Of a stretch of DNA of 64,000 nucleotides, positions 5,276 through 61,877 are shown piece by piece. The stretch is from the IMG/VR virus record IMGVR_UViG_3300021387_000285; one strand, 5' to 3'. Below the pieces are notes generated by a model that saw only the letters and a list, made by a program, of their open reading frames with translations, searched no databases and was not told where the DNA came from. This DNA comes from a virus (lineage: Duplodnaviria > Heunggongvirae > Uroviricota > Caudoviricetes). The translations under genes were made by a program, and so were the position numbers. Position 1 is the first letter of the stretch; every line of letters begins with the position of its first letter.

Positions 5276-6607
5276 ATGATTATTCCTACTGGTGATAGAT
5301 AGTATAGTGATTGGTTAATTGAATTATATAATGAATAGTTACAAATATTTCCAAATAAAGAAATGTTAGTGCCATCTATTACATTTCAAGTAACAGATAA
5401 TTGTAATTTAAGATGCAGCTATTGTTATCAAATTAATAAGGGTAATCATAGAATGCCTTTCTCAATTGCTAAAGATTTTATTGATTTATTAATAGAAAAT
5501 AATGAAAAAACTAAACAATATATTGATACAAAAAATACCTTAGGAGTTGTACTTGATTTTATTGGAGGAGAACCTTTTTTAGAAATAGAATTAATTGATT
5601 AGATTTTAGAATATTTTTAGAAAGCCACCATTGAAGCTAATCATCCTTGGTAGTATCATTGGAAAGCTAGTTTTTCATCTAATGGAACTCTTTATTTTAA
5701 TCCAGAAGTTTAGCATTTTTTAAAAAAATATTTAGATAAAATAGGATTAAGTATCACTATTGATGGAAATAAATAGTTACATGATAGTTGTCGTAAATTT
5801 CCAGATGGCTCAGGTAGTTATGATTTAGCCATTGCGGCCGTTAAACATTATACCAATGAATTACATGGAAGAATGGGAAGTAAAATAACATTAGCTCCAG
5901 AAAATATTCAATATACTTTTGAAGCTATAAAAGAATTTATTGAATTTGGATATACTGATATTCATGGTAATTGTGTTTATGAAAAAGGTTGGGAATTAAA
6001 ACATGCTAAAATTTTTTATCAATAGTTAAAACAATTAGCAGATTATATTATTAACAACGATTTAGAAGAAAAAATATATTGTTCTTTATTTGTTCCTCAT
6101 TTTTTCCATCCAAAACCTTTAGATGATACACAAAATTGGTGTGGAGGGAATGGAAGAATGGTAGCTTTAGATTATAAAGGAGATATTTATCCTTGTATTA
6201 GATATATGGAATCTTCTTTAGGTCCTACTATTAAGCCTATCATTATTGGGAATGTTAGTAAAGGATTTTTATATACTCCAGAACAAATTGAATGTGTGAC
6301 TTGTTTAAAAAATATCAATAGATTAAATCAATCTACAGAAGAATGTATTAATTGCTCTATTGCTGAAGGATGTTCATGGTGCCAAGGATATAACTATCAA
6401 GATAGTGGAGATTTTAATCATAGAGCAACTTATATCTGTATAATGCATTAGGCAAGAGCATTAGCAAATGCTTATTATTGGAATAAATGTTATATAAAAC
6501 ATAATGATAAAGAGCGCATGCATTTATATTTAGAAGATGAAAAAGCTTTATAGATTATTTCATTAGAAGAATTAAATAAAATAAAAAAAGCAGAAATCAT
6601 ATTATAA
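5276..6607 (+). CDS. Radical SAM/SPASM-domain enzyme of the anaerobic sulfatase-maturase-like family with 10 in-frame TAG.
   Basis: CNLRCSYC (Cx3Cx2C) motif. The segment IDGNKQLHDSCRKFPDGSGSYD is anSME-like. A C-terminal SPASM cysteine cluster CVTC...CINCSIAEGCSWC is present. Track ORFs 5363-5602 and 6158-6451 are fragments of this gene. Confidence 0.85.
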
Positions 6608-7222: not shown

Positions 7223-8125
7223 TTAAGTTGTTCGTAAATCACCAGTACATTTTCCTGCACAACTTCCTCCACAAGCCCCTGTACATCCTAAACAAGTACC
7301 ATGACAAGTACCTACACATCCACTTGAACAAGACCCTTTGCATCCTCCAGAACATGGAGTACAAGTACCTTTACAAGTACTCATACATCCTTCTTCACAC
7401 TAGGTATCACACTAACCACTACATGTAAACGTACAATCATTCTTACAATAATCTTTACAAGTACCACCACAGCCATTAGTACAATCACTACCACAACCAC
7501 TACTGCATGCATTTCCACATCCACTACATCCATCATTACAACCACTACTACATGCATCTCCACAACCAGTACAAGTTCCAGTACAGCCTAAACAAGTCAT
7601 ATTACAAACCCAATTACAGTCATCTTGGCATGCATATGTGCAACCTGTTGCACAACTTCCAGTACATCCAGTACACCCAGAACATCCACCAGTGCATCCA
7701 GTACATCCTAAACAAGTACCTTTACAATCTCCAGTACAGCCAGAACAAGTACTTGTACAATCTCCAGTACAACTCGTACATAAACCAGTACAAGAACTAT
7801 TACAAGCAGAATTATTTGTTTCTCCACTTGGCTAACGATATGGTCGCGATGCATAATCATTATTGGCTATCTATAATTTAATTAGTGCTTTAATAATATC
7901 ATACTAAGCAACTTCTGAATAGTCTGTTATACTAGTATTTATCTAATTTAAAGGATGTATTAAATTATTCCAAATATTAGGGATAATTTCATCTTCTTTA
8001 ATAGCATTTATTGTATTATCAAAGGTAAAAGTATATTTATCTCGTCTCTATAACTCAGTATTTATAGCAGCTCGTAAATCATTTATTTCACTTGCTACTA
8101 TTTTATCATATTGATTTAATCCCAT
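7223..8125 (-). CDS. Cysteine-repeat (CXXX/CXX) protein, 300 aa, with 6 in-frame TAG. It has an N-terminal ~100-aa Cys-free domain and a C-terminal ~200 aa of C-x2-3-C repeats (about 50 Cys).
   Basis: ATG at 8125 with a GGAAAGGAG RBS. The translation ..CTGLCTSCTGDCTSTCSGCTGDCKGTCLGCTGC.. runs to TAA at 7223-7225. Track ORFs 7412-7600(-), 7381-7563(-) and 7507-7881(+) are fragments or antisense of it. Confidence 0.7.
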
Positions 8126-8236
8126 ACTTTGCTCTCCTTTCCCTCTAAACTATTCTATAAAAAATAAAAAAATAATTACTATTATTAACCTATTTTGACC
8201 TATTATTATAGTACCATATTTTTTCAAAAAAATAAA

Positions 8237-8277
8237 GGGATAGGCACTTAGTACCTATCCCAATTTTTTATTTTTTC
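8237..8277. terminator. Hairpin terminator, possibly bidirectional.
   Basis: Stem GGGATAGG/CCTATCCC with T-runs on both sides. It overlaps the stop of the 8248-8577 gene. Confidence 0.55.
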
Positions 8278-10411: not shown

Positions 10412-10648
10412 TTACAGCCCTAAAGTTTTCTTAAAGGCAGTAAATTCAGTATCAAAGTCTAGACCTTTCTATGCACATAAATTACGAGCGATTTTTTCAA
10501 TATCCGCACCATTGTGTGATTGGGCTAGACTCAGGAGGTTCTAACCCATTGGTGATGATTGCGCTTGTTGTTCTAAAAAAGACATTATCATTTGAGTTGG
10601 ATTTTGTTTACTCTTCACCATTGATAACATTTGTTGTACTGGATTCAT
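10412..10648 (-). CDS. Hypothetical small protein with 2 in-frame TAG.
   Basis: ATG at 10648 is preceded by TAAGGAGG. TAATG overlap with the upstream gene. Confidence 0.4.
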
Positions 10649-11001
10649 TAAAATACCTCCTTATAGTTTACAGATGGCTACTCTTTTGGTGTTAATAAAT
10701 CATTAATATGATTTAATGCCTACTCAAACTCACTCCTAGTAATATAATCACCTACTGTTGGTTCTGCGGGAATTGGCTTTAACTCATACATATTTAAAGA
10801 GGCAGTGCCATCCATATTGATTTGTTTAGTATAAATTCTTTTATTTGCCAAATCTGGAAAATAAAAAATTGAACCATCAAAATCAATAGACAATGCACGT
10901 ACTTCTTCTAATGATGACACAGGATGCCCTTTAAGTAAATATGAAGTGGCCGGCGTTCTTTGCGCGGTAGCATTTGACTACTATTGATAATAATTATACA
11001 T
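10648..11001 (-). CDS. Hypothetical protein with several in-frame TAG.
   Basis: ATG at 11001 is preceded by AAGAGGA. It extends the track ORF 10720-10920(-) in both directions. Confidence 0.4.
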
Positions 11002-11162
11002 GCGTTTTTCCTCTTTTCTGGAAAATTTTTTACAATTTTTTTCCATTTTTATGTAAGTTTTTTGGTAAAATTATTATTGCTTTTTGTCCTTATGCTACCT
11101 GCGTTTTACCAATTTTTAGTAAAATTATTGTAAAAAAATTGGGAATGCCTATTTTCGGTTTG

Positions 11163-11192
11163 TTGATTTTTTACAAAAAATATGATATTATA
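11163..11192 (+). promoter_or_regulatory. Sigma-A-type promoter within a ~60-bp conserved block.
   Basis: CGGTTTGTTGATTTTTTACAAAAAATATGATATTATATATACAGAAAAAT. One of four long paralogous promoter blocks. Confidence 0.6.
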
Positions 11193-11230
11193 TATACAGA
11201 AAAATATATAGAAAGGAGAACCCTTTTACA

Positions 11231-11983
11231 ATGCCAGTACATGATGCATTAGGTACACGAATGAAAGAGTACGAATCTAGGAATCAGTATTATCTTCAAA
11301 AACGTACTCCAGTAGCAATACGTATTGATGGTCGCGCATTTCATTCATTTACTAAAGAACTTAACAGACCATTTGATAATGTTTTTCAAACATCTATGAT
11401 TCAAACAATGGAAACACTTTGCGGGGAAGTTCAGAATTGTATTTTTGGGTATACGCAATCTGATGAAATTACTTTAATTTTAAAAGATTATAATCAATTA
11501 AATACTTCGGCATGGTTTGATTATAGGACAGATAAATTATGTAGTATTTCTGCTAGTTTAGCAACATATTATTTTAATAAATATTTTAAAGAAAATGCAG
11601 AAAAAGTTATTTGGGCCAATCCAAATAATAGTTATTCATCAACTCTTGCTAAATGCTTGAATAAACCTGCTATTTTTGATGCCCGTTGTTTTAATATTCC
11701 AAAAGAAGAAGTAGTTAATCTTATCTATTGGAGACAGTTAGATGCGGTCCGCAATTCAATTCTCTCATGCGGTCAAGCAGAATTTTCTCACAAAGAGCTT
11801 ATGAATAAATCTTGTAAAGAGATTAAAACAATGCTTGAAGATATCGGCAAATCTTGGGATAAAATTCCTATCCACAAGCAGCGTGGAACCGCATGTACAA
11901 GAGTTGAAGGAACTTGGATTACTGATTATGCGATGCCTATTCTTCTTAAAGAAGATAGAGCTTATTTGGAAGAATTGATTTAA
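11231..11983 (+). CDS. Thg1-like protein (tRNA-His guanylyltransferase family, 3'-5' polymerase). TAG-free.
   Basis: IRIDGRAFHSF, GYTQSDEITLIL and YWRQLDAV match Thg1 motifs VRLDGRNFHRF, AYGQSDEYSFVF and SWRQADCH. Confidence 0.8.
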   Translation: MPVHDALGTRMKEYESRNQYYLQKRTPVAIRIDGRAFHSFTKELNRPFDNVFQTSMIQTMETLCGEVQNCIFGYTQSDEITLILKDYNQLNTSAWFDYRTDKLCSISASLATYYFNKYFKENAEKVIWANPNNSYSSTLAKCLNKPAIFDARCFNIPKEEVVNLIYWRQLDAVRNSILSCGQAEFSHKELMNKSCKEIKTMLEDIGKSWDKIPIHKQRGTACTRVEGTWITDYAMPILLKEDRAYLEELI

Positions 11984-12438
11984 TGGAAAAATACAAAGAT
12001 TTAGTTCATTACGATCGTGACAAAGAAGAATATTATATTGATTATCCTATAGGAAATCAAACATTTCACATGGGTTTTCAAAAGTGTGAAGTTGATTCTT
12101 TTATTGATAATGGAACAGTATATTTTAATGTTTGGATAAATCTATATAATAAACGTAAAGACATGTGGCGTAATGAAGATTTACTTTTATCTACTGGATT
12201 GAACCCAATTAAAACAGTTCTTGTTGCGCGAGAATGTTTTAAAGCAATTGAAGCAGAAATTATTGAAGATATGGAATATAATAATAAAGATGTAATTATT
12301 TATTGCCATTGGGTAAATAATCGTAGACGAGATGCTTATTATAAAGTTCTCTCACGAATGGGATATAGATATGGAAGAATCCCATTGCATCCTTATAAGG
12401 TAATTATGAAGAGGTATAAAAATAATGAAAATAAATGA
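11983..12438 (+). CDS. Hypothetical protein.
   Basis: ORF from the track with an ATG/TAA overlap to the upstream gene. Confidence 0.4.
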   Translation: MEKYKDLVHYDRDKEEYYIDYPIGNQTFHMGFQKCEVDSFIDNGTVYFNVWINLYNKRKDMWRNEDLLLSTGLNPIKTVLVARECFKAIEAEIIEDMEYNNKDVIIYCHWVNNRRRDAYYKVLSRMGYRYGRIPLHPYKVIMKRYKNNENK

Positions 12439-12775
12439 TCTTTTAATTGAAGATATAGCATGGACTTTAAGAAATTTTACTGCTAAAATCATAGATTGGG
12501 AAGAAACATCTTTTTGGGAACGTGACTATAATGAAGACCCCTATAAACAAGCTGCTCATGCTATGCTAATTACTACTAAAATTGGTTATGGTGATTGTTA
12601 TCCTATTGATACTTTTATTGAAAATGTAAAAACAGGTAATTTTATTGACTATGATGGAAGTGGTTTTTGGGTTGACTCTGAAGGTAATAAAATTAATCCA
12701 ATTATATGTGATGCAAACTGGTTAAAACAAAATAAACCAGAAAATGCTAGATTTATAATGTGGTATAACAAATGA
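12425..12775 (+). CDS. Hypothetical protein.
   Basis: ORF from the track. Confidence 0.4.
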   Translation: MKINDLLIEDIAWTLRNFTAKIIDWEETSFWERDYNEDPYKQAAHAMLITTKIGYGDCYPIDTFIENVKTGNFIDYDGSGFWVDSEGNKINPIICDANWLKQNKPENARFIMWYNK

Positions 12776-13005
12776 TTTTATGTAATAAAAAATGTATCCC
12801 TTGCTGTGATTATTGTATATATGTTATTCATGATGAATGGGACGAATATGTGGATTATTGGGTAAATCCTAAACATGTAGTAGGTGGTCCCATTTGGTGT
12901 AAATTACATCAAGATAAAAAACATCAAGAAATTGCTAAAAGTTGTGGTAGTTGTGATGATTTTCATTGTTGTAATGCAAAAGAAGAAAGTTGGTATATTG
13001 TATGA
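12772..13005 (+). CDS. Cys-rich putative zinc-binding small protein.
   Basis: Multiple CxxC pairs. Confidence 0.4.
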   Translation: MILCNKKCIPCCDYCIYVIHDEWDEYVDYWVNPKHVVGGPIWCKLHQDKKHQEIAKSCGSCDDFHCCNAKEESWYIV

Positions 13006-13196
13006 CAGAGTTAGATGGTTTTATAAGTAGAATAAATCTTAATGGAAAAACTTATGGTTTAAAATGTGAAGTCGTTGAAGCGCGACCTATTACTTGTAAA
13101 AAGTGTGGGGCTTCTTTTTAGCTTCATTATGGAGAAGGACGATGTGAACATTGTGGTACATATTATACTACACACTTTTATATTGAGGAAAAATAA
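13002..13196 (+). CDS. Zinc-ribbon small protein with 1 in-frame TAG.
   Basis: CKKCG...CEHCG. ATGA and TAATG overlaps with its neighbours. Confidence 0.4.
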
Positions 13197-13399
13197 TGGA
13201 TGTTCCAAATTTAGATAATTTGATTAAAGCTATTAGTTGTGATACTTGGGCTTCTAATAAATGCAAAGAATGTCCTTATAATTATCAGCATTGGGATGAC
13301 AGTGGAGATTATGGTTTTTGGTGTTGTGATGAAGAAAAAAAATGGAATGATGCTTTATTTTATTTAAAACTTTATCAACATTTGATTAATTGGAAATAA
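13196..13399 (+). CDS. Hypothetical small protein.
   Basis: ORF from the track. Confidence 0.4.
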   Translation: MDVPNLDNLIKAISCDTWASNKCKECPYNYQHWDDSGDYGFWCCDEEKKWNDALFYLKLYQHLINWK

Positions 13400-13436
13400 T
13401 AATGAATAAAAAATATAGTTGGAGTAGTAATATAAT

Positions 13437-14243
13437 ATGAGTAAATTTTATGGAAATTATTCAGGTCGCTTTGGTGACCACTTTAAAGAATGCAAAGAAT
13501 ATTTTAAAGAATCAGAAATTGTAATGCTTGCTCTTACTGGAAGCCAAAACTATGGGCTTGATACAAAAGATAGCGATATAGATACTAAGCTTACTGTTCT
13601 TCCTTGTAAAGAAGATATTTTCTTTAATAAGCCAGCAGTATCAACAACTCATATTAGGGATAATGAAGAGCATATTGACTTTAAAGATATCCGTTTAATG
13701 CTGCCTACATTGCTTAAGCAGAATGTTAATTATCTTGAGCAACTTTTCTCTACTCAGTATCTTATTAATGAAGATTATAGTCATGAGATAGAATCTCTTC
13801 TTGATATCAGAGAAGATATTGCAAGATTCTATCCACATAAGTGTATTATGACAATGTATGGAATTGCAATGGGAAAAAAGAATAGAATCTTTAGAGAACT
13901 TCCAGAAAAGAAAGATATCTTTACATATGGATATAATCCAAAAGAAGCAATGCAGCTTTTCCGTATTGAAGAGTTTTTGCACCGATATATAAATGAAGAA
14001 CCATTTGAAGATTGTCTAAAATCTCAGCAAAGGGAACATTTATTGCTGGTTAAAAGTGGCGTTTATGATTCTCATGAAATGGTAGATATGGTAAATGCGG
14101 CAATCGCGCACGTTGAAGAAATGAAAGAAGATTATTTTGCGACTCATGAAGAAACATATAAACCTGGGGTACAGATTGTAATTTATGATGTTCAAAAAAG
14201 AATTATGGAGAAATATTTAAAAAATGTCTTTAATAATAGATGA
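13437..14243 (+). CDS. Minimal nucleotidyltransferase (Pol-beta superfamily) domain protein.
   Basis: ALTGSQNYGLDTKDSDIDT matches the GSxxxGxxxxxSDxD NTase signature. Confidence 0.6.
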   Translation: MSKFYGNYSGRFGDHFKECKEYFKESEIVMLALTGSQNYGLDTKDSDIDTKLTVLPCKEDIFFNKPAVSTTHIRDNEEHIDFKDIRLMLPTLLKQNVNYLEQLFSTQYLINEDYSHEIESLLDIREDIARFYPHKCIMTMYGIAMGKKNRIFRELPEKKDIFTYGYNPKEAMQLFRIEEFLHRYINEEPFEDCLKSQQREHLLLVKSGVYDSHEMVDMVNAAIAHVEEMKEDYFATHEETYKPGVQIVIYDVQKRIMEKYLKNVFNNR

Positions 14244-14523
14244 ATATTTTCAGAATAAAATAGATAATAAAATAGATTTTACAGAAGAAGATTTTTGGGA
14301 TTTCATAGATGAATATTCTATTGAAACTGAATATGGAGATTTACGCAGATGGTATCGTTCCGCCACTACAATCTGTGAATTTAATGGAAAATATTATGCT
14401 TGTGAATGGGATCAAGGATTAACAGAAAGACAAGAGAATCAATGGTATGGAGATCAACCATATGAAGTAATTCCTAAAGATATCGTCATAACTAAAACAG
14501 AAAGGATTTGGGAACGTGCATGA
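14224..14523 (+). CDS. Hypothetical protein.
   Basis: ORF from the track. Confidence 0.4.
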   Translation: MSLIIDEYFQNKIDNKIDFTEEDFWDFIDEYSIETEYGDLRRWYRSATTICEFNGKYYACEWDQGLTERQENQWYGDQPYEVIPKDIVITKTERIWERA

Positions 14524-14894
14524 AAATTATTATAGCAGGTGGGAGAGATTTTAATAATCGTGCCATAATGTTTCCAATTCTTTTAAAGTATATCAATAGC
14601 TCAAAAGATATTATTATAAGCGGAGATGCGCAAGGCGCTGACACACTTGGAGCAGAATGGGCAGAAACGTTTGGAATAGAAGTTTGGCATTTTCCAGCTA
14701 AATGGGAGAAATATGGTAAGTCAGCAGGATTTATTCGCAATACTGAAATGGCTGACTGCGCGGATGCTCTTATTGCCTTTTGGGATGGGAAAAGCAAAGG
14801 CACAGCCCATATGATTAAAACAATGAAATCCAAATGGAAAAAGTATTGGGTCTTTAATTATTCAGGAGAACTGATAGAAGAAGGGAGCTTATAA
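14520..14894 (+). CDS. SLOG/DUF2493-like Rossmann-fold protein.
   Basis: KIIIAGGRDF...GDAQGADTLGAEWA...WDGKSKGT. ATGA overlap with the upstream gene. Confidence 0.45.
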   Translation: MKIIIAGGRDFNNRAIMFPILLKYINSSKDIIISGDAQGADTLGAEWAETFGIEVWHFPAKWEKYGKSAGFIRNTEMADCADALIAFWDGKSKGTAHMIKTMKSKWKKYWVFNYSGELIEEGSL

Positions 14895-14899
14895 AAAAA

Positions 14900-15712
14900 A
14901 TGAAGTTCTTTATTACAGGGGACTGTCATGGTGAATTTGCACGCTTTAATGCCCCTCCAAAAGATGAAGAGTTAGGAGTAATTATTCTTGGCGATGCAGG
15001 ATTTAATTTTTATCTTAATAAAACAGATGAAAGAAAAAAGGAAGAACTTTGTACCAACCATCCTAATATGACTATATATTGCGTGCGCGGCAACCATGAA
15101 GCAAGACCTCAAGATATTGATACTATGACTACAGTATTTGATGCAACAGTTCATGGAGTAGTTTACATGGAGCCACAGTATCCTAATATCCATTATTTTC
15201 TTGATTATGGATTTTATGATATTGGTGGATATAATTGTCTTGTAATAGGCGGCGCATATTCTGTTGATAAAAAATGGCGACTGATAAGAAATGGAATGAC
15301 AGAAGAAACTAACAATCCTAAAAAAACAGGATGGTTTGCTAATGAACAACTTACTAAAGAAGAAATGGAAGATTGTTATGAACTAGTAAAAAACTTTAAC
15401 AAACCTGTAGATTTTGTCTTTACTCATACTTGTCCAACAAAATTTCAACCTACAGATATGTTCCTTCATGGAATAGACCAATCTCAAGTAGACAACTCTA
15501 TGGAAGAGTTTCTAGAAGATGTAAGTTATCAAATGGGTTGGAATATTTGGTGTTTTGGGCATTATCATGCCGACCGCATTGAACGCCCGCACGTTGAACA
15601 ATATTATAGAGATATAGAAGAGCTAGATGAAGTATATAACAGATGGAAAAATTATGATAAAACACATGAGCTTCCTTGGCATCTTGTGAAAGGACCAATG
15701 TTTGATGCATGA
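14900..15712 (+). CDS. Calcineurin-like metallophosphoesterase.
   Basis: GDCHG, GDAG and GNHE motifs. Confidence 0.7.
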   Translation: MKFFITGDCHGEFARFNAPPKDEELGVIILGDAGFNFYLNKTDERKKEELCTNHPNMTIYCVRGNHEARPQDIDTMTTVFDATVHGVVYMEPQYPNIHYFLDYGFYDIGGYNCLVIGGAYSVDKKWRLIRNGMTEETNNPKKTGWFANEQLTKEEMEDCYELVKNFNKPVDFVFTHTCPTKFQPTDMFLHGIDQSQVDNSMEEFLEDVSYQMGWNIWCFGHYHADRIERPHVEQYYRDIEELDEVYNRWKNYDKTHELPWHLVKGPMFDA

Positions 15713-15891
15713 TATTATTTCTTAAAATTATTGCACCAATTTGTTTAATTATTGCTACTATTCTCTTTTGGAAATTTGAACATAAAATCTTACATTCAAA
15801 AGAACAACATTTTACGATATTTCTTTTTATTGTTCTTGAATGCTGTATCATATTACTTTGGATGTGTTATTTAGCCTGGTTATTTCCATAA
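15709..15891 (+). CDS. Small membrane protein.
   Basis: Two hydrophobic segments. Confidence 0.35.
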   Translation: MILFLKIIAPICLIIATILFWKFEHKILHSKEQHFTIFLFIVLECCIILLWMCYLAWLFP

Positions 15892-15910
15892 TCAGGCTAT
15901 TTTCGGTTTA

Positions 15911-16974: not shown

Positions 16975-17313
16975 ATGTATTCAATTTATGTTGATGATGA
17001 GAGAACCCCAAAGGGAAAGTTTGACATTGTTTGCCGCACAACTAATGATGCAGTAAAAGCAGTAAGACGTAAATATAAAGAGGGCGTGCGTAACTTTTAT
17101 TTAGACTTAGACCATGATGCTGGATTAGATAGTCTTACTAATGAGCATGGTGGAGATTTTATAAATGTTCTAAAACAGATAGATGCCTATGTTAATATGG
17201 GCAGAATGCGCGACCTTGATATCACAGTAAATTATCATACTGGCAATCCAGTAGGAAGAGAGAATATGCATAACTTTGTTATTAATTCTGGGTATATGCA
17301 CGAATTGGTCTAA
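16975..17313 (+). CDS. Hypothetical protein.
   Basis: ORF from the track. Confidence 0.4.
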   Translation: MYSIYVDDERTPKGKFDIVCRTTNDAVKAVRRKYKEGVRNFYLDLDHDAGLDSLTNEHGGDFINVLKQIDAYVNMGRMRDLDITVNYHTGNPVGRENMHNFVINSGYMHELV

Positions 17314-17704: not shown

Positions 17705-18277
17705 ATGATTGAAGGATTGTATGAGCCTTTCAGAACTGAATGGTCGGCAGAAGGAACCGTATGGTTATATAGTGATCCTCATTTTGATGAAGATGAAGAT
17801 CTGAGAATTGCTTTCCCTCATCGTCCTACTGCAGAAGAGCAGGTTAAAATGATCAACAGTAATGTTGGCAAAAAAGATCATCTTATTCTTCTTGGAGATA
17901 TTGGAAGTATTGAATGGGCACGTAAGCTAAGAGGACATAAGATTCTTATAGCAGGAAACCATGATATTGGTTTAAGCGCATATAAGGATATTTTTGAATA
18001 TGTATATGGTGGCCCACTTATGATTTCTGAAAAGATAATTTTATCGCATGAACCTTTAGGAATTGATTGGGCCTTCAACATTCATGGGCATACGCACATG
18101 CAGAAAGAAGATAAAAAAGGTTGTTTATGTGTATGTTCTGATGTTATAGGATATACTCCAATTAACTTTAATCAATTTATTAAGTCTGGTAGACTTACAG
18201 AAATAACTCCATTGCATCGTATAACCATTGATAAAGCCACATTAAGAAAACAAAAGAGAGGAGCATGGCGCAAATGA
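17705..18277 (+). CDS. Calcineurin-like metallophosphoesterase.
   Basis: GD..., GNHD and GHTH motifs. Confidence 0.65.
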   Translation: MIEGLYEPFRTEWSAEGTVWLYSDPHFDEDEDLRIAFPHRPTAEEQVKMINSNVGKKDHLILLGDIGSIEWARKLRGHKILIAGNHDIGLSAYKDIFEYVYGGPLMISEKIILSHEPLGIDWAFNIHGHTHMQKEDKKGCLCVCSDVIGYTPINFNQFIKSGRLTEITPLHRITIDKATLRKQKRGAWRK

Positions 18278-18822: not shown

Positions 18823-19023
18823 ATGACTGTATATGAAAAGATTGACCGAGCATTACGTCAACATGAGCAGCATAAATATTATGAACGCTCTCTTGATTCT
18901 ATTGCTGATTATATTGATTGGGCTTGGAAATGGCGTAAAATAACACCAAAAGAAAAAGATGAAGTATGTAACAGAGTTTGCGCTTTATATGAAGAAAAAT
19001 TAGCACTTATTAGAAAGAGTTGA
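18823..19023 (+). CDS. Hypothetical small protein.
   Basis: ORF from the track. Confidence 0.4.
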   Translation: MTVYEKIDRALRQHEQHKYYERSLDSIADYIDWAWKWRKITPKEKDEVCNRVCALYEEKLALIRKS

Positions 19024-19586
19024 TGTATATGAAAAAGTTTATATTACCAAAGCTTCATATTGATATTGAACGATGGAAATATTGTATGGCATTGGATATT
19101 TATGTCTCTAATCTTGGAAGATTTAAAGATACTCAAGGGCATCTTTTAACTGTATGCAAAAAAGATGGATACCTTTATTGTAAAGGAAAACTTGCTCATC
19201 GTTTAGTTCTTCAAACATGGAAACCAGTCCCTAATTATGCTAATCTTACAGTTGACCATAAAAATCATAATACTTGGGATAATCGTTTAAAAAATCTTGA
19301 ATGGGTAACGCTTGAAGAAAATAGAAAACGCGATGAAATAGATAAAAAAAATAATGCACCAATTAGTACAACTATCAACTCTACTATGAACGTAGATACT
19401 ATGGTTATGTTAAATACTACTCTTATGCCTATTGGTAATGCTAAAGAGATTCTTAAAAATGATAAGACAATTTCTGGAAATGCTAATATTCAACGAGCAT
19501 TTGAAAAAGCAATGAATACACCAAACAAACCAATTAAGTTTGGTGGATATTCTATTACTTGTATTAAAAAGGATAATGATAAATGA
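19020..19586 (+). CDS. HNH homing endonuclease.
   Basis: ..HRLV..VDHKNHNTWDNRLKNLEWVTLEENRKR matches the HNH_3/NUMOD-type motif. Confidence 0.75.
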   Translation: MMYMKKFILPKLHIDIERWKYCMALDIYVSNLGRFKDTQGHLLTVCKKDGYLYCKGKLAHRLVLQTWKPVPNYANLTVDHKNHNTWDNRLKNLEWVTLEENRKRDEIDKKNNAPISTTINSTMNVDTMVMLNTTLMPIGNAKEILKNDKTISGNANIQRAFEKAMNTPNKPIKFGGYSITCIKKDNDK

Positions 19587-19963: not shown

Positions 19964-21199
19964 ATGCTTAATAAAAATCAAGAACGAGAACTGGCATATG
20001 TTGTAGTTATAGATGAAATACGAGAGATTCCTGGCTATGATAGAGTAGAGCATGCGCGAACCGGTGGTTGGTGGTGTATTGTTCCTAAAGGACAGTTTCA
20101 TGTAGGAGATGCAGCAATCTATTTTGAAATTGATAGTAAAGTTCCTTCAACCAACCCAGCATTCGCTTTCCTTGAAAAACGTAATTATAAAATAAAAACT
20201 CAGAAGATGTGTAAGGTACTCAGCCAGGGACTTATTATGCACGCAGAAGATTTTGGATGGAAAGCGTATCAAGCTGGAGAAACTGGTTATAATGAACCAG
20301 CTTGTATTATGGATGATAATAATGCTTGTCATTATGTAGATACAGAATCCCGTTTCCTTACTAAAATTCTCGGTGTAACTTATGCGGATGAAGAAGATAA
20401 TAATCGTAAAGCTAATTCTGTAGACAAATATAAAAAGATGGCACAGCGACATCCTGCAATTTTTCGCAAACCTTTTGTGCGTTGGCTTATGAAGCGCACT
20501 TGGGGTAAGAAACTTATGTTCTTGTTTTTTGGAAAGAAAAAAGATAAGAAGAATAGCTGGCCAGAATGGGTTACTAAAACTGATGAAGAGCGCATTCAAA
20601 ACATGCCTTGGATTCTTGAAGATAATGGAGAATGGGTCGTCACTGAAAAGATAGATGGCAGCTCTACTACCTTTACGATGAAACGTGGAAAACATAATAA
20701 ATATGAGTTCTATGTATGCTCCCGTAATGTATGTTTTGACAGTGTAGATAAACGCTGCTATTATGATACTAACATTTATTGGGAAATGGCTGAAAAATAT
20801 GATATGTATAATATGTTGCTTGCTTTTCTGCTTGGACGGCCAGATGTTGAGTGGGTAACTATACAAGGAGAAACTTTCGGCGCAGGTGTGCAAAAACGTG
20901 ATTACTCTCTTGAAGGCCATGATTTCAGAGCATTTAATCTTATTACTTCTGATAGAGGTCGTTGGGGAACTCTTGAAATGAAAGAACTCCTTGAAAAGCA
21001 TTATAATATTCCCTGCGTGCCTGTTGTTCTTCCTAACTTTAAATTTGAAGGACTTGATGTAGATAAACTCCTTACTTTTGCAGAAGGAAACTCTATGATT
21101 GATGATAAGCCTCGTGAAGGTTTTGTTTTCCGTTCTAAAGATGGACAGCGTTCTTTTAAAGCAGTAAGTAATGCTTTTCTACTTAAATATCATATGTAA
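19964..21199 (+). CDS. ATP-dependent RNA ligase-like nucleotidyltransferase (Rnl family) with an N-terminal extra domain.
   Basis: KIDGSS (motif I, KxDGxx), EGFVFR (motif IV) and ..FLLKY (motif V). Confidence 0.55.
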   Translation: MLNKNQERELAYVVVIDEIREIPGYDRVEHARTGGWWCIVPKGQFHVGDAAIYFEIDSKVPSTNPAFAFLEKRNYKIKTQKMCKVLSQGLIMHAEDFGWKAYQAGETGYNEPACIMDDNNACHYVDTESRFLTKILGVTYADEEDNNRKANSVDKYKKMAQRHPAIFRKPFVRWLMKRTWGKKLMFLFFGKKKDKKNSWPEWVTKTDEERIQNMPWILEDNGEWVVTEKIDGSSTTFTMKRGKHNKYEFYVCSRNVCFDSVDKRCYYDTNIYWEMAEKYDMYNMLLAFLLGRPDVEWVTIQGETFGAGVQKRDYSLEGHDFRAFNLITSDRGRWGTLEMKELLEKHYNIPCVPVVLPNFKFEGLDVDKLLTFAEGNSMIDDKPREGFVFRSKDGQRSFKAVSNAFLLKYHM

Positions 21200-21212: not shown

Positions 21213-22103
21213 ATGAAAAATAAAATTATTACTACAAGTATTGTTTGTACTATTGTAATTATAGCTCTTTTAATTGTCGGATTGAGTTGTACGACTTCTG
21301 TTCCTGCTGGATTTACAGGAGTCCCTGTGACTTTTGGTAAAGTTGCTGATTATACTCTAGATAGTGGTTTCCATATAAAGGGACCTTTTACTTCTGTTAT
21401 TAAAATGGATAATCGTATTCAAAAACATACTATCCAAATGAATGCCTTTTCAAAAGATATTCAAGAGACTTCAGTAACATATACTATTAACTATCAAATT
21501 AGTAAAAATGATGCAATGACTATTTATCGTACTATTGGTAAAAATTATTTTGATACAGTAATTGCGCCTAATGTCAGTGAAGCAGTTAAAACAGCAACTG
21601 CGCATTATACAGCAGAAGGTCTTATTAATAGTCGTGATAAACTTGCTAGCGATATTGAAGAAATATTAGTTCAACTTTTAGAGAAATATAATATTGTAAT
21701 TGTTGGCACTTCTATTGAAGACCTTGACTTTACTGATGCTTTTACAAATGCGGTTGAAGCAAAGCAGGTAGCACAGCAAGATAAATTGCGCGCTGAAACA
21801 ATTCAGGCTCAGCAAACTATGGAAGAACAAGCAAAAGCAGAGCGTGCGATTATTGTTGCCGAAGCTGAAGCAAAACAGGCGATTATTGCGGCTAATGCAG
21901 ACCTTGAAGTTGTACAGATTCAAGCAGAAGCGAGCCTTTATGCAGGTGAGCGTGAGGCGCAAATGAACCAGCGTATTGCAGAAGCGCTAACTCCAGACCT
22001 TATTAAATATTATTGGATTAAACAGTGGAATGGAGAACTGCCATCAACTATGCTTAATGATAGCACAGGAATTATGTTAACTCTTGGAGAAAATATAGAA
22101 TAA
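21213..22103 (+). CDS. SPFH/band-7 (prohibitin-HflC-like) membrane protein.
   Basis: N-terminal TM helix, SPFH core, then a coiled-coil Ala/Glu/Gln-rich tail. Confidence 0.7.
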   Translation: MKNKIITTSIVCTIVIIALLIVGLSCTTSVPAGFTGVPVTFGKVADYTLDSGFHIKGPFTSVIKMDNRIQKHTIQMNAFSKDIQETSVTYTINYQISKNDAMTIYRTIGKNYFDTVIAPNVSEAVKTATAHYTAEGLINSRDKLASDIEEILVQLLEKYNIVIVGTSIEDLDFTDAFTNAVEAKQVAQQDKLRAETIQAQQTMEEQAKAERAIIVAEAEAKQAIIAANADLEVVQIQAEASLYAGEREAQMNQRIAEALTPDLIKYYWIKQWNGELPSTMLNDSTGIMLTLGENIE

Positions 22104-23679: not shown

Positions 23680-24432
23680 ATGAGTGTTTACTGTGCTAGT
23701 GATTGGCATGGATGTTATTGGGTTTGGGAAAAAGTAAAAGAAATTCTTAAACCCGATGATAAATTATATTTTTTAGGAGACGCCGCAGATAGAGGACCAG
23801 ATGGATGGAAACTTATCAAAGAACTCCTTACAGACCCTAGAGTTATCTACATTAAGGGCAACCATGAAGATTTAATGATTGAAGCTATTGGGAAGTTTAA
23901 TCCAGAAGAAGAAGATAGTTTATGGAATGCGGACACCACCCTCTGGCATTATAATGGCGGCGACCCTACTTATGATGCTTTTCTTTTGGATGAAGATAAT
24001 TTTGGAAAAGCAAAGATTTTAAAACAAATAAAAGATTTGCCTTTTTGCGCCAATTATATCAATAAAAATAATCAACAAGTATTTCTTTGTCATGCAGGAT
24101 GTGATGGTGTAGACATTGATACTTTAGATGAATATCATGCAATATGGGATAGGGAACATTGGAGATTTCCTGATGAATGGTCTGGAGAAGATAATCAAAT
24201 AATAGTTCATGGACATACTCCTATTGACCTTATGATTGAGGAACAGGAAAATATAGCAAGATGGCATAAAGATAAATTTCAAGTAACAATACCTAAATGG
24301 ACTCCTGGTACATCTTATTGGTATGCGCAGGGGCACAAAGTCTGTATTGATATTGGTACGGTTTGGGAAAATGTAGCAATTCTTTTGAATCTTGATACTT
24401 TTGAAGATATTATATTGATGAAGAGGTATTAA
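23680..24432 (+). CDS. Ser/Thr protein phosphatase (lambda-PPase-like metallophosphoesterase).
   Basis: DWHG, GDAADRG and GNHE motifs. Confidence 0.7.
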   Translation: MSVYCASDWHGCYWVWEKVKEILKPDDKLYFLGDAADRGPDGWKLIKELLTDPRVIYIKGNHEDLMIEAIGKFNPEEEDSLWNADTTLWHYNGGDPTYDAFLLDEDNFGKAKILKQIKDLPFCANYINKNNQQVFLCHAGCDGVDIDTLDEYHAIWDREHWRFPDEWSGEDNQIIVHGHTPIDLMIEEQENIARWHKDKFQVTIPKWTPGTSYWYAQGHKVCIDIGTVWENVAILLNLDTFEDIILMKRY

Positions 24433-24433
24433 T

Positions 24434-24694
24434 ATGAAAAACTATGAATTACATAATTTTTATTGTATGAATTGTGGGCGTGAAGCTATTCCTATTCAGA
24501 GACAAATAAGTCATAAACATAGCAAACATCATCGTAAAGTTCTTTATTGTCCTTGGTGCAAACAAACTGTTAATCATATTGAATGTAGAACTAGTGAAGA
24601 AGTTTTAGAGTTTAAAGAAAATTTTGAAAAGGGGTTGTATAAAGATGAGTGCAAAGACTCTTTGGATTATGGTAGGATGTCCTGGCGCGGGTAA
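24434..24694 (+). CDS. Zinc-ribbon small protein.
   Basis: CMNCG...CPWCK. Confidence 0.4.
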   Translation: MKNYELHNFYCMNCGREAIPIQRQISHKHSKHHRKVLYCPWCKQTVNHIECRTSEEVLEFKENFEKGLYKDECKDSLDYGRMSWRG

Positions 24695-25139
24695 AAGTTA
24701 CTTCGCAAAAAATCATCTTATAAGAAATAATTTATGGAAATATGTCTCTCGTGATGAAATTAGATTTGCACTTTTAAACAGCGGAGATGAATATTTTAGT
24801 AAAGAGCGACAGGTTTTTAAAGAATTCTGTGAAAAAATTAGCATTAATCTATTAGATAATATTCATACAGATGTAATTGCTGATGCAACTCATTTAAATG
24901 AAAAAAGTCGTAATAAATTATTATATAACTTAAAAAATTATGGAATTGACTTTACTAAAATAGATGTAATTCCAGTTTATGTAAAGGCTTCTTTTGCCAC
25001 TATCCAACAGAGAAATAGCGAAAGAGAAGGACGTGCGCGAGTTCCTTATCATAACCTATGTGATATGTATGATGCTCTACAGCACCCTAATGAAGATAAT
25101 TTTAAATATACCGCAATATTGGAGGTTGATAATTCATGA
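24645..25139 (+). CDS. Polynucleotide 5'-kinase (T4 Pnk kinase-domain-like P-loop kinase).
   Basis: WIMVGCPGAGKSYFAKN...RDEIRF closely parallels T4 Pnk LTIGCPGSGKSTWA...RDDYRQ. Confidence 0.65.
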   Translation: MSAKTLWIMVGCPGAGKSYFAKNHLIRNNLWKYVSRDEIRFALLNSGDEYFSKERQVFKEFCEKISINLLDNIHTDVIADATHLNEKSRNKLLYNLKNYGIDFTKIDVIPVYVKASFATIQQRNSEREGRARVPYHNLCDMYDALQHPNEDNFKYTAILEVDNS

Positions 25140-25693
25140 TTTGGCTTTGTTCTGATTTTCATTTTTGTCATGACAAAGAGTTTGTATGGAAAGCAAGAGG
25201 ATTTTCATCCATTGATGAAATGAATAATGAAATTGTTAGACGATTTAATCTTTTTGTAAAACCTAATGATATTGTCTATATTCTTGGTGATTGCATGCTT
25301 AAAGATAATACAACTGGTATTAAGTTTCTTAGCGACCTTAAAGGTATTAAATATCTTGCTTATGGAAATCATGATACCAATGAAAGATTAAGTCTATATG
25401 AAGATGCACATATCTTTGAAGATATTCAATTTGGTTATCGGTTTAAATATAATAAATGCTCTTTTTGGCTTTCTCATTATCCAATGAAAATGGGAAACTA
25501 TAAAGATAAGCATCCAACTTGGAATCTATCAGGGCATACTCATTCAACTGAAAGTATTGATGGGGATGATTCTATCTATAATGTAGCGATGGATGCACAT
25601 AACTGCTTTCCTATTTCTATTGAGCAAATTATGGCAGAAATTAAAGTTTATAGAGATGAGCATCCTGTTCAGCCATTTAACAAAATAAAATAA
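25136..25693 (+). CDS. Metallophosphoesterase, candidate 2',3'/3'-phosphatase partner of the kinase (bacterial-Pnkp-like arrangement).
   Basis: DFHFCHD, GD and GNHD motifs. ATGA overlap with the kinase gene. Confidence 0.6.
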   Translation: MIWLCSDFHFCHDKEFVWKARGFSSIDEMNNEIVRRFNLFVKPNDIVYILGDCMLKDNTTGIKFLSDLKGIKYLAYGNHDTNERLSLYEDAHIFEDIQFGYRFKYNKCSFWLSHYPMKMGNYKDKHPTWNLSGHTHSTESIDGDDSIYNVAMDAHNCFPISIEQIMAEIKVYRDEHPVQPFNKIK

Positions 25694-26715: not shown

Positions 26716-26985
26716 GTGGTTATTATTCTTATATATGTATTATTAGGAATATTTATCTACGTAGTCGCTGTTCCAATAGCTGAAGGATTGGTAAATATTA
26801 TATTGCAATAGTTTGAAATAATTAAAGGCAAACAACTAGTGCATATAACAAAAATCCAAAAAGAAGTTACTGATTTAAGCGGTGAAGAAGAAGAATTACC
26901 GCAAACTAAAGTTATTGGCTTTGCTTTACCAGATGATGAAGAAGAAATCTATGAAGAAGAGGAAGACGACGATTATGGTGATTGA
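26716..26985 (+). CDS. Small membrane protein with an acidic C-terminal tail; 1 in-frame TAG.
   Basis: TM helix VIILIYVLLGIFIYVVAV then a poly-Glu/Asp tail. GTG start is uncertain. Confidence 0.35.
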
Positions 26986-28228
26986 CTATAAGTTTTATGA
27001 TACTTGTTCTTTATTATTAAAAGCAGGTACCTTATTTGATAATAACGAACCCTTTGCTATTTCATCAATTACATTAAATGAATTAGAAGATATAAAAACT
27101 TCTCCATATAAAGATGCTGAACAAAAGTATGCGGCCCGCAAATTGCTTCATACATTAAAAGAGCATAGAGGAGAATATGATGTCCATATCTTTATAGAAG
27201 ATATGCTACAACCTATTATTGATAAACATTTAACTATAACCAATGATACAAAAATCTTGGCGACTGCAATTAATTATGATAATACTGTTCATCCAGATGA
27301 AACAATATTTGTTACTGACGATAATAGTTTGTTTGAAATTGCTAATTTATTTTTTGGTGAAGATTCTATAGAAAGTGTTGGCGAAGAAGAAATAGACCAT
27401 TATTAGGGGTATTTAGATTTAACACTTAATGAATCTGAAATGGAATAGTTTTATTAGAATTGGCAATAGAATATTTATAATTTATTGCCTAATTAGTATT
27501 TAGTAATTAGAAGTTAGCAAAATGAAATAGTAGATAGATTATGCTATACTGGCACAGAATATCGTCCTATTAGTTTTGAAAGTTTTGATTCTAAACATTT
27601 TGGAGTTATTAAACCAATAGATGTTTAGTAGTAGTTTGTCGCAGATAGCTTAACTCATAACCAATTAACTATGATAAAAGGTCCTGCAGGCTCTGGTAAA
27701 ACATTGCTCGCATTTGGATTTTTGTTCCAGTAGTTAGAAAGACATAAAATAGATAAAATAATTATTTTCTGTAATACTGTTGCTGCAAAGAACGCGGCAA
27801 GGCTTGGTTATTTACCAGGAAGCAGAGAAGAAAAATTGCTAGACTCATAGATTGGTAATGTTTTAATTAGTAAACTAGGTAGCCGTTTAGAAGTTGAAAG
27901 GTTACTTGATGAAGAAAAATTAATTTTATTACCAATGAGTGATATTCGTGGTTATGATACAACAGGCTTGCGCGCAGGTATTTATTTTTCAGAAGCATAG
28001 AATCTTGATATTTCTTTAATGAAATTAGGATTATAGCGCATTGGAGAAGATAGTATTTGCATTATTGATGGTGATGAAAAAACATAGGTAGATGATATTA
28101 GTTTCGCTGGTGCTAATAATGGTATGCGGCGTGCTTCAAAAGTATTTAGGGGTTCTACTATTTATGGAGAAATTGAACTGAAAGAAATACATCGTTCAAC
28201 TATTGGAAAAATTGCAGAAAAAATGTAA
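26975..28228 (+). CDS. phoH: PIN-PhoH fusion (PhoH2/YlaK-like ATPase). The PIN domain (144 codons) is TAG-free and the PhoH part carries 14 in-frame TAG.
   Basis: GPAGSGKTLLA Walker A motif. DGDEKT(TAG)VDD aligns to the invariant PhoH GDxxQxDL, so TAG stands where Gln is expected. The track ORF 26882-27406 is its N-terminal fragment. Confidence 0.75.
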
Positions 28229-39554: not shown

Positions 39555-40706
39555 ATGAATAACGCACTTATTATAGGGATTGTCTGTCTTTTACTTGGTT
39601 TTCTAATTGGACAATTGATAAGAACTATAAAAGTTAAATAGAAAAACCAAGAGTTAGAAATAGCAGAATAGCAAATACAATTACGCATAAAAGATTTAGA
39701 AAAAGAATATATTCAAAAAAATACAGAATTAGATAAGCAGTATTCTCAATTAACAGATAAATATATAGCTGATTTTGAAGAATAGAATCAAAAATTAGAA
39801 AAAGCTGCGCGAACTGCATAGGCTGAAATTGTTAATGAACGTATTGCTTGGGACAAAGAAAAAAATCAAAAAATTATTTATTGGGCATAGCATGAATCTA
39901 ATTTAAAATCTGAAGTTTCTGGTTTAGAATAGTAGATTGAAGAAAAAAAACATTTAATTAATGATTTAGATAATTAGGCTAAAACTGCTGCTAAATTAGT
40001 TGAAGAGCAAGTTGTTAATAATATGACAACAGAAGTTGAACAGCAAAGCAAAGATTTAATCAATAAATACGAACAACTAGAAAGTGAATTATTAGTTCAT
40101 TATCAAGATTTAGCAGATGCCCAAAGAGATGAATGGTTAATTACTACAGAGAAATTAGATAATTAGATTTTAGAAAAAGAAAATCAATTAAATAATTTAC
40201 AACAAATGGCTAATGCTGCTATTGAGTCTAATAAACGTGCGGCCGCCGATAAACAACAAAAAGATTTTTATAGATTACAATTAGATGAAATTGATAAAGA
40301 AGAGATAAAACGTATTCGTTCTATTGAACCTTATTTAAGAAAGAAAGAACCATTAAATAAGGTTATTTGGAAAGTATATTATGAAAAACCATGTACTGAT
40401 TTAATTGGTAGAGTAGTAGGACAAGGACGTAAAACAGGTATTTATAAAATAACTAATATAGATAATGGAATGTGTTATGTAGGATAGGCAGTTGATATTG
40501 CAGAACGTTGGAAACAACATATTAAACGAGGCATCGGCGCAGACCCTCCTACATAGAATAAACTTTATCCTGCTATGTTAGCTATTGGTGTTGAAAACTT
40601 TATGTTTGAAATTATTGAAGAATGTTCTGGAAATCTTTTAAACGAAAAAGAAGATTATTGGTAGAACTTTTATAACGCCAAAGAATGGGGGTACAGTATT
40701 AAATAA
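39555..40706 (+). CDS. Membrane-anchored coiled-coil protein with a C-terminal GIY-YIG/T5orf172 nuclease domain; 12 in-frame TAG.
   Basis: N-terminal TM helix, a long coiled coil, then C-terminal GIYKITNIDNGMCYVG(TAG)A. Confidence 0.65.
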
Positions 40707-60270: not shown

Positions 60271-60466
60271 TATTTTAAAAGTTGATACTAATAAGATAGA
60301 TACAGATACAACATATAAAGTAGCTACACAATTACGTAAAGTCCTTAATGAAGAAGACGTTGTTCTAGTTCTACCTTATGGTATAGATGTATTATTAGAT
60401 GTTCCAATAGAAGAAATAATTTCTATTAGAGATAATTTAAATGAAATTATCAAATCAAGGAGTTAA
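60263..60466 (+). CDS. Hypothetical small protein.
   Basis: ORF from the track. Confidence 0.35.
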   Translation: MINILKVDTNKIDTDTTYKVATQLRKVLNEEDVVLVLPYGIDVLLDVPIEEIISIRDNLNEIIKSRS

Positions 60467-60473
60467 AATAAAA

Positions 60474-61830: not shown

Positions 61831-61877
61831 AAAAAAGGGTTAGACTTATAAAAAGTCTAACCCTTTATTTTATTTTA
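61831..61877. terminator. Bidirectional hairpin terminator.
   Basis: AAGGGTTAGACT..AGTCTAACCCTT stem with A6 upstream and a T-run downstream. Confidence 0.7.

Follow-up and report, generated by a model that had tools for sequence, protein, structure and literature searches.

Why would a bacteriophage carry an enzyme that builds RNA in the reverse, 3'-5', direction? The question is raised by a stretch of 64,000 nucleotides of phage DNA (IMG/VR record IMGVR_UViG_3300021387_000285; its full length is referred to here as the window), whose plus strand carries an open reading frame (ORF) for a Thg1-like protein (TLP) and, shortly after it, another for a nucleotidyltransferase of the RlaP family. 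Bacterial-type TLPs are well characterised in vitro, and the phage lineage described here offers a testable setting for the purpose of reverse-direction RNA polymerisation in bacteria and phages. Reasoning by analogy with characterised relatives, we consider it probable that the phage protein is an active TLP, acting as the 5'-end rebuilding enzyme of an island for the repair of RNA, and of transfer RNA (tRNA) in particular, against ribonucleases of the host or of competitors.

A bacterial-type Thg1-like protein with a conserved active site

11231..11983, plus strand: Thg1-like protein of the bacterial TLP type, 250 amino acids, a predicted 3'-5' templated RNA nucleotidyltransferase (PF04446, phrog_4717, 4kgk)
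Within this protein: nucleotide-binding residues E15, R31, H38, S77, K102, R152 and R168 (roles from PMC3701042)

A reading of the sequence alone had recognised a phage-encoded Thg1-like 3'-5' nucleotidyltransferase in this ORF, which opens with ATG and closes with TAA, and the matches obtained here point the same way. PF04446 (Thg1) aligns over profile positions 2-130 of 130 (E 1.1e-32; 113.2 bits, cutoff 29.2), PHROG 4717, a family annotated as 'tRNA-His guanylyltransferase', is matched at E 2.6e-78, and the TLP of Bacillus thuringiensis (BtTLP, PDB 4kgk) aligns end to end, C-terminal region included, at E 2.6e-39; no NCBIfam model matches either this ORF or that of RlaP. The phage origin of the DNA is apparent from a DNA polymerase (phrog_405, E 1.9e-216), a RecJ-like exonuclease and an endolysin, and the window also encodes gyrase subunits, an NAD-dependent DNA ligase and helicases. 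The catalytic motifs of the family, reported as complete by the earlier reading, are indeed all in place: RIDGRAFHSF at residues 31-40, GYTQSDE at 73-79 and YWRQLD at 166-171.

Would such an enzyme be active? Residue roles established for BtTLP and human THG1 (hTHG1) were taken from PMC3701042 and mapped through an ungapped alignment, and conservation was scored over the 120 closest database homologues. None of the catalytic carboxylates has been lost: D33 and D78, which bind metal, and E79 as third carboxylate correspond to D30, D75 and E76 of BtTLP and to D29, D76 and E77 of hTHG1, and none of the 120 homologues departs from them. Invariant as well are the nucleotide-binding residues listed above, where E15, R31, H38, S77, R152 and R168 equal E12, R28, H35, S74, R131 and R147 of BtTLP, and K102 is the conserved lysine of the K95/96 position. 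The sole departure among the BtTLP activation and transfer residues checked is the activation-step lysine K43, which is R46 in the phage protein. We considered whether this arginine could mark a dead enzyme and rejected the idea, as lysine and arginine alternate at the position across the family (lysine in 86 and arginine in 34 of the 120 homologues) with the charge kept; judged from these sequences, R46 is a family polymorphism and not a lesion.

The protein is closer to BtTLP (E 2.6e-39) than to the archaeal TLP 5axk (4e-10) or to human THG1 (7.7e-7). Moreover, it carries S179 where eukaryotic enzymes have an asparagine (N158 in hTHG1, N161 in ScThg1) that is a eukaryote-specific activation residue (PMC3701042); over the homologues this position holds methionine in 44, serine in 41 and alanine in 34, and asparagine in none. 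Because it is closest to BtTLP and the eukaryote-specific asparagine is absent, we assign the phage protein, on its sequence, to the bacterial-type TLPs, the repair clade, and not to eukaryotic Thg1. The main activity of BtTLP is the templated repair of the 5' ends of truncated tRNAs (PMC3701042). By analogy, we predict that the phage enzyme adds nucleotides to RNA 5' ends in the 3'-5' direction, and that it prefers Watson-Crick templated repair over the addition of G-1.

A predicted RlaP and a GNAT-like protein beside Thg1

11983..12438, plus strand: u151, a protein of 151 amino acids, GNAT-like in its predicted fold; its start codon ATG shares one base with the Thg1 TAA (TAATG)
13437..14243, plus strand: RlaP-family Pol-beta nucleotidyltransferase, 268 amino acids in two domains, predicted to add one or two nucleoside monophosphates to the 3'-OH of damaged RNA (PF10127, phrog_388, fold model)

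The sequence-only reading had placed a Pol-beta-type minimal nucleotidyltransferase about 1.4 kb downstream of the Thg1-like gene. The distance and the family stand: the ORF starts 1,453 nucleotides past the Thg1 stop codon, and its Pol-beta signature (G35-S36, D47-I-D49 and D81/D84) is invariant in 26 homologues. The word 'minimal' does not, and we rejected a minimal nucleotidyltransferase of the MNT type, a single domain of ~100-130 amino acids, for this protein of 268, whose AlphaFold model (pLDDT 91.7) joins an N-terminal alpha/beta nucleotidyltransferase domain to a helical C-terminal domain at about residues 112-266; the best fold matches of the model are two-domain Pol-beta enzymes, the 253-amino-acid kanamycin nucleotidyltransferases. 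Assignment to RlaP follows from PF10127, matched by residues 25-221 over profile positions 17-216 of 249 at 30.0 bits against a gathering cutoff of 23, a modest margin, with many close homologues having no precomputed PF10127 match; phrog_388 is matched at E 1.3e-17. Neither a sequence nor a profile search found an RlaP chain in the PDB.

RlaP stands for 'RNA ligase-associating Pol-beta', and homologues are found in phage T4 (NrdC.11) and in RtcB operons (PMC12776372). A preprint of December 2025 reports that two Pseudomonas RlaPs put one or two nucleotides on the 3'-OH of damaged RNAs, and that the aminoacylation of tRNAs missing a nucleotide was restored only with RlaP (PMC12776372). We predict, by analogy, the same addition of one or two nucleoside monophosphates to RNA 3'-OH ends for the phage protein. 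The gene for an Rnl5-type ligase follows 5.7 kb further along the plus strand, and RlaP is likewise associated with ligase or repair genes in several loci of Thg1-encoding relatives (L006, L007, L011, L035, L048, L091 and L092; such loci bear L-numbers from L006 to L096, L089 being Fusobacterium phage Fnu1, NC_055035.1).

Homologues of u151 (42-46% identity) occur only beside Thg1, immediately downstream of it, in every locus examined, and in L093-L095 they stand directly upstream of RlaP. We do not file u151 as an acetyltransferase: it is modelled as GNAT-like in fold only, none of 31 family members matches a GNAT Pfam model at E <= 1, and acetyl-CoA motif A (R/Q-x-x-G-x-G/A) was not found in u151, where the beta4-alpha3 junction reads N-R-R-R-D-A-Y-Y, a glycine-free segment invariant in the family. 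A BFVD fold search with u151 matched only uncharacterised viral proteins.

Linkage to repair genes that survives rearrangement

Considering that 164 of 50,697 GenBank phage records (30-47% identity) and at least 318 IMG/VR stretches hold Thg1 relatives, and that PHROG 4717 is a family dedicated to them, the earlier description of a phage Thg1-like enzyme as uncommon has to be given up. A database search with the protein returned at least 8,000 scored candidates, all at E <= 1e-10; the closest GenBank phage record is at most 46.5% identical, and the closest cultured carrier is Fusobacterium phage Fnu1 (44% identity), which has a 738-amino-acid 'RNA ligase / metallophosphoesterase' gene 16 kb from its Thg1.

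The company that Thg1 keeps was compared over the best 80 IMG/VR loci (48-56% identity) of the at least 318 stretches. About 30 of these 80 have, no further than 10 kb from Thg1, homologues of the repair genes of the window (RlaP, phosphoesterases, kinase or ligase), in several orders. At least four gene orders link Thg1 to repair genes among relatives: Thg1-u151-RlaP-SLOG-phosphoesterase, in the window, L091-L096, L006 and L007; Thg1 immediately beside RlaP, in L011 and L035; MPE3-MPE2-Thg1-kinase-u185, in L028, L041, L052-L054, L063 and L070; and Thg1-MPE3-kinase-u185, in L090 (MPE denotes a metallophosphoesterase, and u185 is a further phosphoesterase). The trio of MPE3, kinase and u185 directly adjoins Thg1 in L090, L028, L041 and others. 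Among closer relatives, on contigs of 213-300 kb, L091 (68% identity) and L092 are colinear with the window, and in L090 Thg1 is followed by a phosphoesterase, the kinase and a phosphoesterase. The most persistent neighbours of Thg1 are enzymes of RNA end-healing and sealing, and a linkage that survives rearrangement argues for a functional coupling of Thg1 with the repair genes, even though common descent plays a part. Indeed, of the roles proposed by the sequence-only reading, counter-defence against tRNA-cleaving nucleases is the one that the gene context favours, through RlaP, the phosphoesterases, cREC, the PNK-like kinase, the Rnl5 ligase and the recurrence of their linkage.

Layout of the repair island

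The Thg1-like gene is the first plus-strand gene past a strand switch, after minus-strand structural genes and a divergent intergenic region. The remaining features of its putative transcription unit are as follows, with promoter and terminator calls made as consensus matches.

11163-11191, plus strand: promoter-like site TTGATT-17-TATTAT with TG (consensus match)
11212-11219, plus strand: Shine-Dalgarno AAAGGAGA before the Thg1-like gene (consensus match)
12425-12775, plus strand: u116, small ORF (phrog_14149)
12772-13005, plus strand: u77, small Cys-rich ORF
13196-13399, plus strand: u67, small Cys-rich ORF, conserved in L091 and L092
14224-14523, plus strand: u99 (phrog_14665)
14508-14894, plus strand: YAcAr SLOG-domain protein (PF10686, 4e-13)
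14900-15712, plus strand: MPE1, calcineurin-like metallophosphoesterase (PF00149, 3.7e-10)
15872..15899, plus strand: first strong terminator-like hairpin past the Thg1-like gene, a 12-bp stem and then a T run (consensus match)

Promoter-like sites in the upstream region are barely more numerous than in its shuffles. On the plus strand, no strong terminator-like hairpin was found between Thg1 and MPE1, and Thg1, u151, RlaP, SLOG and MPE1 appear to form one putative transcription unit, of which u99, SLOG and MPE1 would be the last genes. A match to phrog_1649 falls within this u99-SLOG-MPE1 stretch (14224..15712), which is colinear in L091, L092, L093, L095 and L096.

16975-17313, plus strand: cREC (cyclic-phosphate-processing receiver) domain protein (PF20274, 3.7e-12)
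17705-18277, plus strand: MPE2, phosphoesterase (phrog_547, 3.1e-25)
19020..19586, plus strand: HNH_3/NUMOD4 homing-endonuclease-like gene between the phosphoesterase and ligase genes (profile match)
19964..21199, plus strand: Rnl5-type (DraRnl/NgrRnl-like) ATP-dependent RNA ligase (PF09414, 9.5e-23; PF21189, 5e-18)
21213..22103, plus strand: SPFH/Band_7 (prohibitin-like) protein after the ligase (PF01145, 1.2e-28)
23680-24432, plus strand: MPE3, lambda-phosphatase/NinI-like metallophosphoesterase (PF00149, 3.1e-12)
24579 or 24624-25139, plus strand: polynucleotide kinase (PNK)-like P-loop kinase with GCPGAGKS (AAA_33, 5.4e-16)
25136-25693, plus strand: u185, phosphoesterase (phrog_547, 5.6e-40)

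RlaP, SLOG, three or four phosphoesterases, cREC, the PNK-like kinase and the Rnl5 ligase lie on one strand within 14 kb, and, going by the domains predicted, the island is a complete toolkit for end-healing, nucleotide restoring and sealing. The ligase combines a PF21189 OB fold at residues 11-92 with a PF09414 adenylyltransferase at 223-401, including the motif I lysine K229 (KIDG); it matches the Naegleria RNA ligase 5cot at E 7.2e-32, and TIGR02306 at E 1.6e-32 with 112.8 bits, under the equivalog cutoff of 151. The kinase matches phrog_505, 'polynucleotide kinase', at 1.1e-20 and the kinase region of bacterial Pnkp at 1.6e-7.

Other genes are kept alongside. The HNH_3/NUMOD4 gene occupies the same place in L091 (56% identity), L093 and L095. 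An SPFH gene likewise follows the Rnl5-type ligase in L091, L006, L007 and L035, and stands two genes past Thg1 in Fnu1 (gp144); a glycosyltransferase gene separates the SPFH gene of the window from MPE3. Furthermore, the YAcAr SLOG and cREC genes are interleaved with the repair genes of the window, and L091 and L092 carry NADAR genes; perhaps the island combines RNA repair with the removal of nucleotide signals.

A TAG-poor island in a TAG-recoded genome

The exact Thg1 protein was found on 11 metagenomic contigs, one of them a scaffold of 195,902 bp. A near-identity DNA search with positions 10500-15000 found no match among GenBank phages, and the phage is therefore known from metagenomes only. 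It uses TAG as a sense codon: readthrough of TAG joins numerous ORF fragments into long genes, in which as many as 14 TAGs stand in frame (examples are 5276-6607, 26882-28228, 39555-40706, 55903-58152 and, on the minus strand, 61870-63990), and the public gene calls on the 195,902-bp scaffold also read through TAG. In-frame TAGs are unevenly spread: per 1000 codons, the blocks at 2.1-11.0 and 26.8-30.7 kb contain ~18, the replication block 4.2 and the island (11.2-26.7 kb) only 1.3; the Thg1-like gene has none. Considering its low TAG density, this 15-kb island would be translatable under the standard code.

Right after the island, the gene for a protein with a PIN domain and a PhoH-like ATPase (26882-28228) has 14 in-frame TAGs, and many relatives keep a homologue of it (54-60% identity) a few kb past Thg1. 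Among the structural genes, a minus-strand ORF of 346 amino acids (7223-8263) contains 9 in-frame TAGs, and its C-terminal two-thirds are a Cys/Gly/Thr-rich repeat (CTGCTG.C, CSGC etc.), which makes it an unusual protein of cysteine-rich low complexity. An unusual auxiliary gene encodes a nucleobase permease of the xanthine/uracil family (60441-61733; PF00860, E 1.9e-51); the contig index holds no record of this exact permease protein.

A proposed route of repair

How might these parts work together? The island would be translated before the reassignment of TAG takes effect, as its TAG count would permit, with the genes from Thg1 to MPE1 presumably forming an operon. A ribonuclease of the host or of a competitor would then cut or trim tRNAs. 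Going by what their families do, the PNK-like kinase would phosphorylate 5'-OH ends, whilst cREC and the metallophosphoesterases would strip 2',3'-cyclic or 3'-phosphates. On the 3' side, RlaP would put one or two untemplated nucleotides on the 3'-OH, by analogy with its Pseudomonas relatives; on the 5' side, the TLP would activate the 5'-monophosphate with ATP or GTP, by analogy with BtTLP and archaeal TLPs, and then extend that end 3'-5' with nucleotides templated by Watson-Crick pairing to the opposite strand of a stem, as a rule the acceptor stem. Rnl5 ligases seal nicks in duplex RNA, going by the biochemistry of the family, and the Rnl5-type ligase of the island would close those that remain. 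The GNAT-fold protein encoded between the TLP and RlaP would be an accessory. The reaction chemistry of the relatives invoked here is described in PMC3701042, PMC4820378 and PMC12776372.

Several considerations weigh against a repair pathway of this kind. Of the 80 IMG/VR loci compared, no more than about 30 show the repair-gene homologues within 10 kb of Thg1; gut phages that are related to one another may owe some of the common gene order simply to descent; and Bacillus phages with Thg1 and an RlaP-like gene carry the two far apart. We know of no defence nuclease that trims the 5' ends of tRNAs, and our literature search brought up neither biochemistry nor genetics on any phage TLP. Perhaps, given the YAcAr SLOG and cREC genes and NADAR in relatives, the island serves counter-defence in general and not a single pathway, and the promoter and terminator calls rest on consensus matches only.

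A narrower and more speculative proposal is that the cassette of TLP, GNAT-fold protein and RlaP is a dedicated two-ended machine for rebuilding RNA, in which RlaP would serve the 3' side, the TLP would fill in a tRNA stem in the 3'-5' direction, and the GNAT-fold protein would select substrates or regulate, with the nick then closed by the Rnl5 ligase. We advance this only tentatively, as the less likely outcome. Were it true, it would amount to an undescribed route of templated gap repair for tRNAs attacked in their stems, and would give bacterial-type TLPs their first physiological role.

Alternative roles and the evidence from tRNA genes

If the phage TLP does not rebuild damaged tRNAs, what else could it do? 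Both the family name and the PHROG annotation 'tRNA-His guanylyltransferase' suggest a dedicated tRNA-His enzyme, which would set G-1 opposite C73 on phage or host tRNA-His for charging by histidyl-tRNA synthetase, and bacterial TLPs are able to add G-1 opposite C73 in vitro. Moreover, about 12 of 60 loci have a tRNA array no more than 10 kb from the Thg1 homologue, and three of these arrays include tRNA-His. However, the tRNA-His genes of TLP-encoding phages, three in all (L010, Fnu1 and L091), encode G-1 in the genome, as bacteria do (TATG, closing with G-1, followed by GTG), which weakens a role in G-1 supply; two of them, in L010 and L091, have C73, and RNase P should retain G-1 there as in bacteria, an argument already made in PMC2904730. 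The third, that of Fnu1 (L089, 3064-3137, minus strand), also encodes G-1 but with a eukaryote-like A73 instead of the bacterial C73, which might let RNase P remove the encoded G-1 and could then create a need for its re-addition. Against the idea stand, too, the membership of the enzyme in the repair-type TLP clade rather than the eukaryotic Thg1 clade, and its conserved neighbours, which are end-healing and sealing enzymes and not tRNA genes; over the whole window, ARAGORN found no tRNA gene and an Rfam gathering scan no RNA family. All told, we regard a dedicated G-1 enzyme as unlikely.

Could the enzyme instead mature the tRNAs of the phage itself, by 5'-editing in the manner of mitochondrial TLPs, or finish an amber-suppressor tRNA for the reassignment of TAG, as the sequence-only reading had also suggested? 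The phage does reassign TAG, its TLP gene is free of TAG, as expected if it were needed before the code change, and in one relative (L058) a tRNA(CUA) gene precedes the TLP gene by 10 kb. Yet tRNA genes, including any without encoded 5' nucleotides, were found neither in the window nor in 5 kb of sequence added upstream, which holds large structural genes, although badly truncated ones could escape ARAGORN, which is biased to intact stems. With the same bias, the 60 tRNA genes flanking Thg1 homologues show no acceptor mismatch at position 1, and 53 of them, including the L058 suppressor, have fully paired stems; the other 7 'mismatch' cases are upper bounds, as the stem parser misassigns pairs where ARAGORN leaves a mismatch unbracketed. 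We accordingly rejected mitochondrial-style editing of phage tRNAs and, with TLP homologues also common in phages without a sign of recoding (Bacillus, Mycobacterium and Caulobacter phages), we give maturation of the phage's own tRNAs or of a suppressor hardly any credence. There is, lastly, the idea that tRNA is not the substrate at all, and that the protein would act on the 5' ends of other RNAs, such as phage transcripts or small RNAs, or handle a nucleotide signal within an NAD or nucleotide counter-defence module formed with SLOG, cREC and the phosphoesterases. The palm domain of Thg1 is common to GGDEF and Cas10 cyclases (PMC2904730), YAcAr SLOG and cREC are neighbours in the window and NADAR is present in L091 and L092, Iyer et al. 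(2021) tied SLOG, cREC and NADAR domains to conflict systems based on NAD/ADP-ribose and cyclic nucleotides (PMC7824862), and some eukaryotic TLPs work on non-tRNA RNAs (PMC5041481). On the other side, the BtTLP residues that bind the activating and incoming nucleoside triphosphates and the RNA 5' end are all conserved, and the neighbours that persist most are those that heal and seal RNA ends. To our knowledge, no member of the Thg1 family makes a cyclic or oligonucleotide signal, and we think a role of this kind very unlikely.

Some of these tRNA genes have features of their own. The tRNA(CUA) of L058 (312-401) is unusually long at 90 nucleotides and is labelled 'Pyl' by ARAGORN; its acceptor stem (TGGGGAT/ACCCCTA) and G73 are those of the tRNA-Gln(CUG) genes in L059 (190-262) and L061 (1126-1198), and its sequence suggests a Gln-type amber suppressor. 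The tRNA-His of L010 (18806-18878), beside the Thg1 homologue, has two U-U mismatches, at acceptor pairs 4:69 and 5:68, in a stem verified by reading it by hand.

Returning to the repair of damaged tRNAs, which we continue to prefer, the locus hints that some host defences damage the 5' ends or stems of tRNAs, beyond their anticodon loops.

Comparison with known systems

An RNA-repair role for bacterial and phage Thg1 had been predicted by comparative genomics (PMC2904730, PMC7824862). Anantharaman, Iyer and Aravind (2010) described the association of bacterial Thg1 genes with genes for polynucleotide kinase, Macro and RNA ligase and already reported phage Thg1 (PMC2904730), whilst Iyer et al. 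(2021) listed Thg1 among the RNA-repair nucleotidyltransferases of jumbo phages, with RlaP and CCA-adding enzymes (PMC7824862). Since 2013, phage genome papers have annotated the gene, and possible functions discussed for phage Thg1 are tRNA modification and RNA repair. The earlier view that a phage Thg1-like enzyme is not characterised therefore holds for biochemistry, of which the literature search returned no study, but not for its existence, reported in 2010 and listed again in 2021. The Thg1-like gene is a routine member of a catalogued phage protein family with a repair role already predicted; modestly new are the tight Thg1/GNAT-like/RlaP cassette in a gut-phage lineage, its placement where a genome recoded at TAG has few TAGs, and the findings that speak against the enzyme as a supplier of G-1.

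Annotated homologues of the same family occur in Pseudomonas phage 201phi2-1, in Bacillus phage Bc431v3 (gp143), in Fnu1 (gp147) and in the Lak megaphages. The present copy differs in belonging to a TAG-recoded gut phage of ~196 kb and in its direct linkage to u151 and RlaP, unlike the Bacillus phages with their distant Thg1 and nucleotidyltransferase genes. The closest structural reference is BtTLP (4kgk/4kgm), with 245 amino acids to the 250 of the phage protein, an end-to-end alignment, and identical carboxylates and residues for nucleoside triphosphate and RNA binding; the phage protein differs in R46 for K43 and S179 for M158, and its gene heads a putative operon with the GNAT-fold protein and RlaP. 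Eukaryotic Thg1 (human THG1, 3otb) has the fold and the catalytic carboxylates in common with the phage protein; the match is weak (E 7.7e-7) and confined to the N-terminal half, the N158 asparagine is absent, and untemplated addition of G-1 opposite A73 is not expected of the phage TLP.

Phage T4 counters the anticodon nuclease PrrC with Pnkp and Rnl1, and in this system, as in bacterial Pnkp/Hen1 and in RtcB-RlaP operons, a healing kinase/phosphatase and an RNA ligase restore tRNAs that a defence nuclease has cut. The window follows the same logic with different parts: its ligase is of the Rnl5 type (OB fold and nucleotidyltransferase domain, NgrRnl-like) instead of Rnl1 or RtcB, and healing is split over separate genes for a kinase and for calcineurin-like phosphoesterases. 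To this common scheme of healing and sealing, the island adds, as predicted here, two enzymes that restore nucleotides, with RlaP serving the 3' end and the TLP the 5' end.

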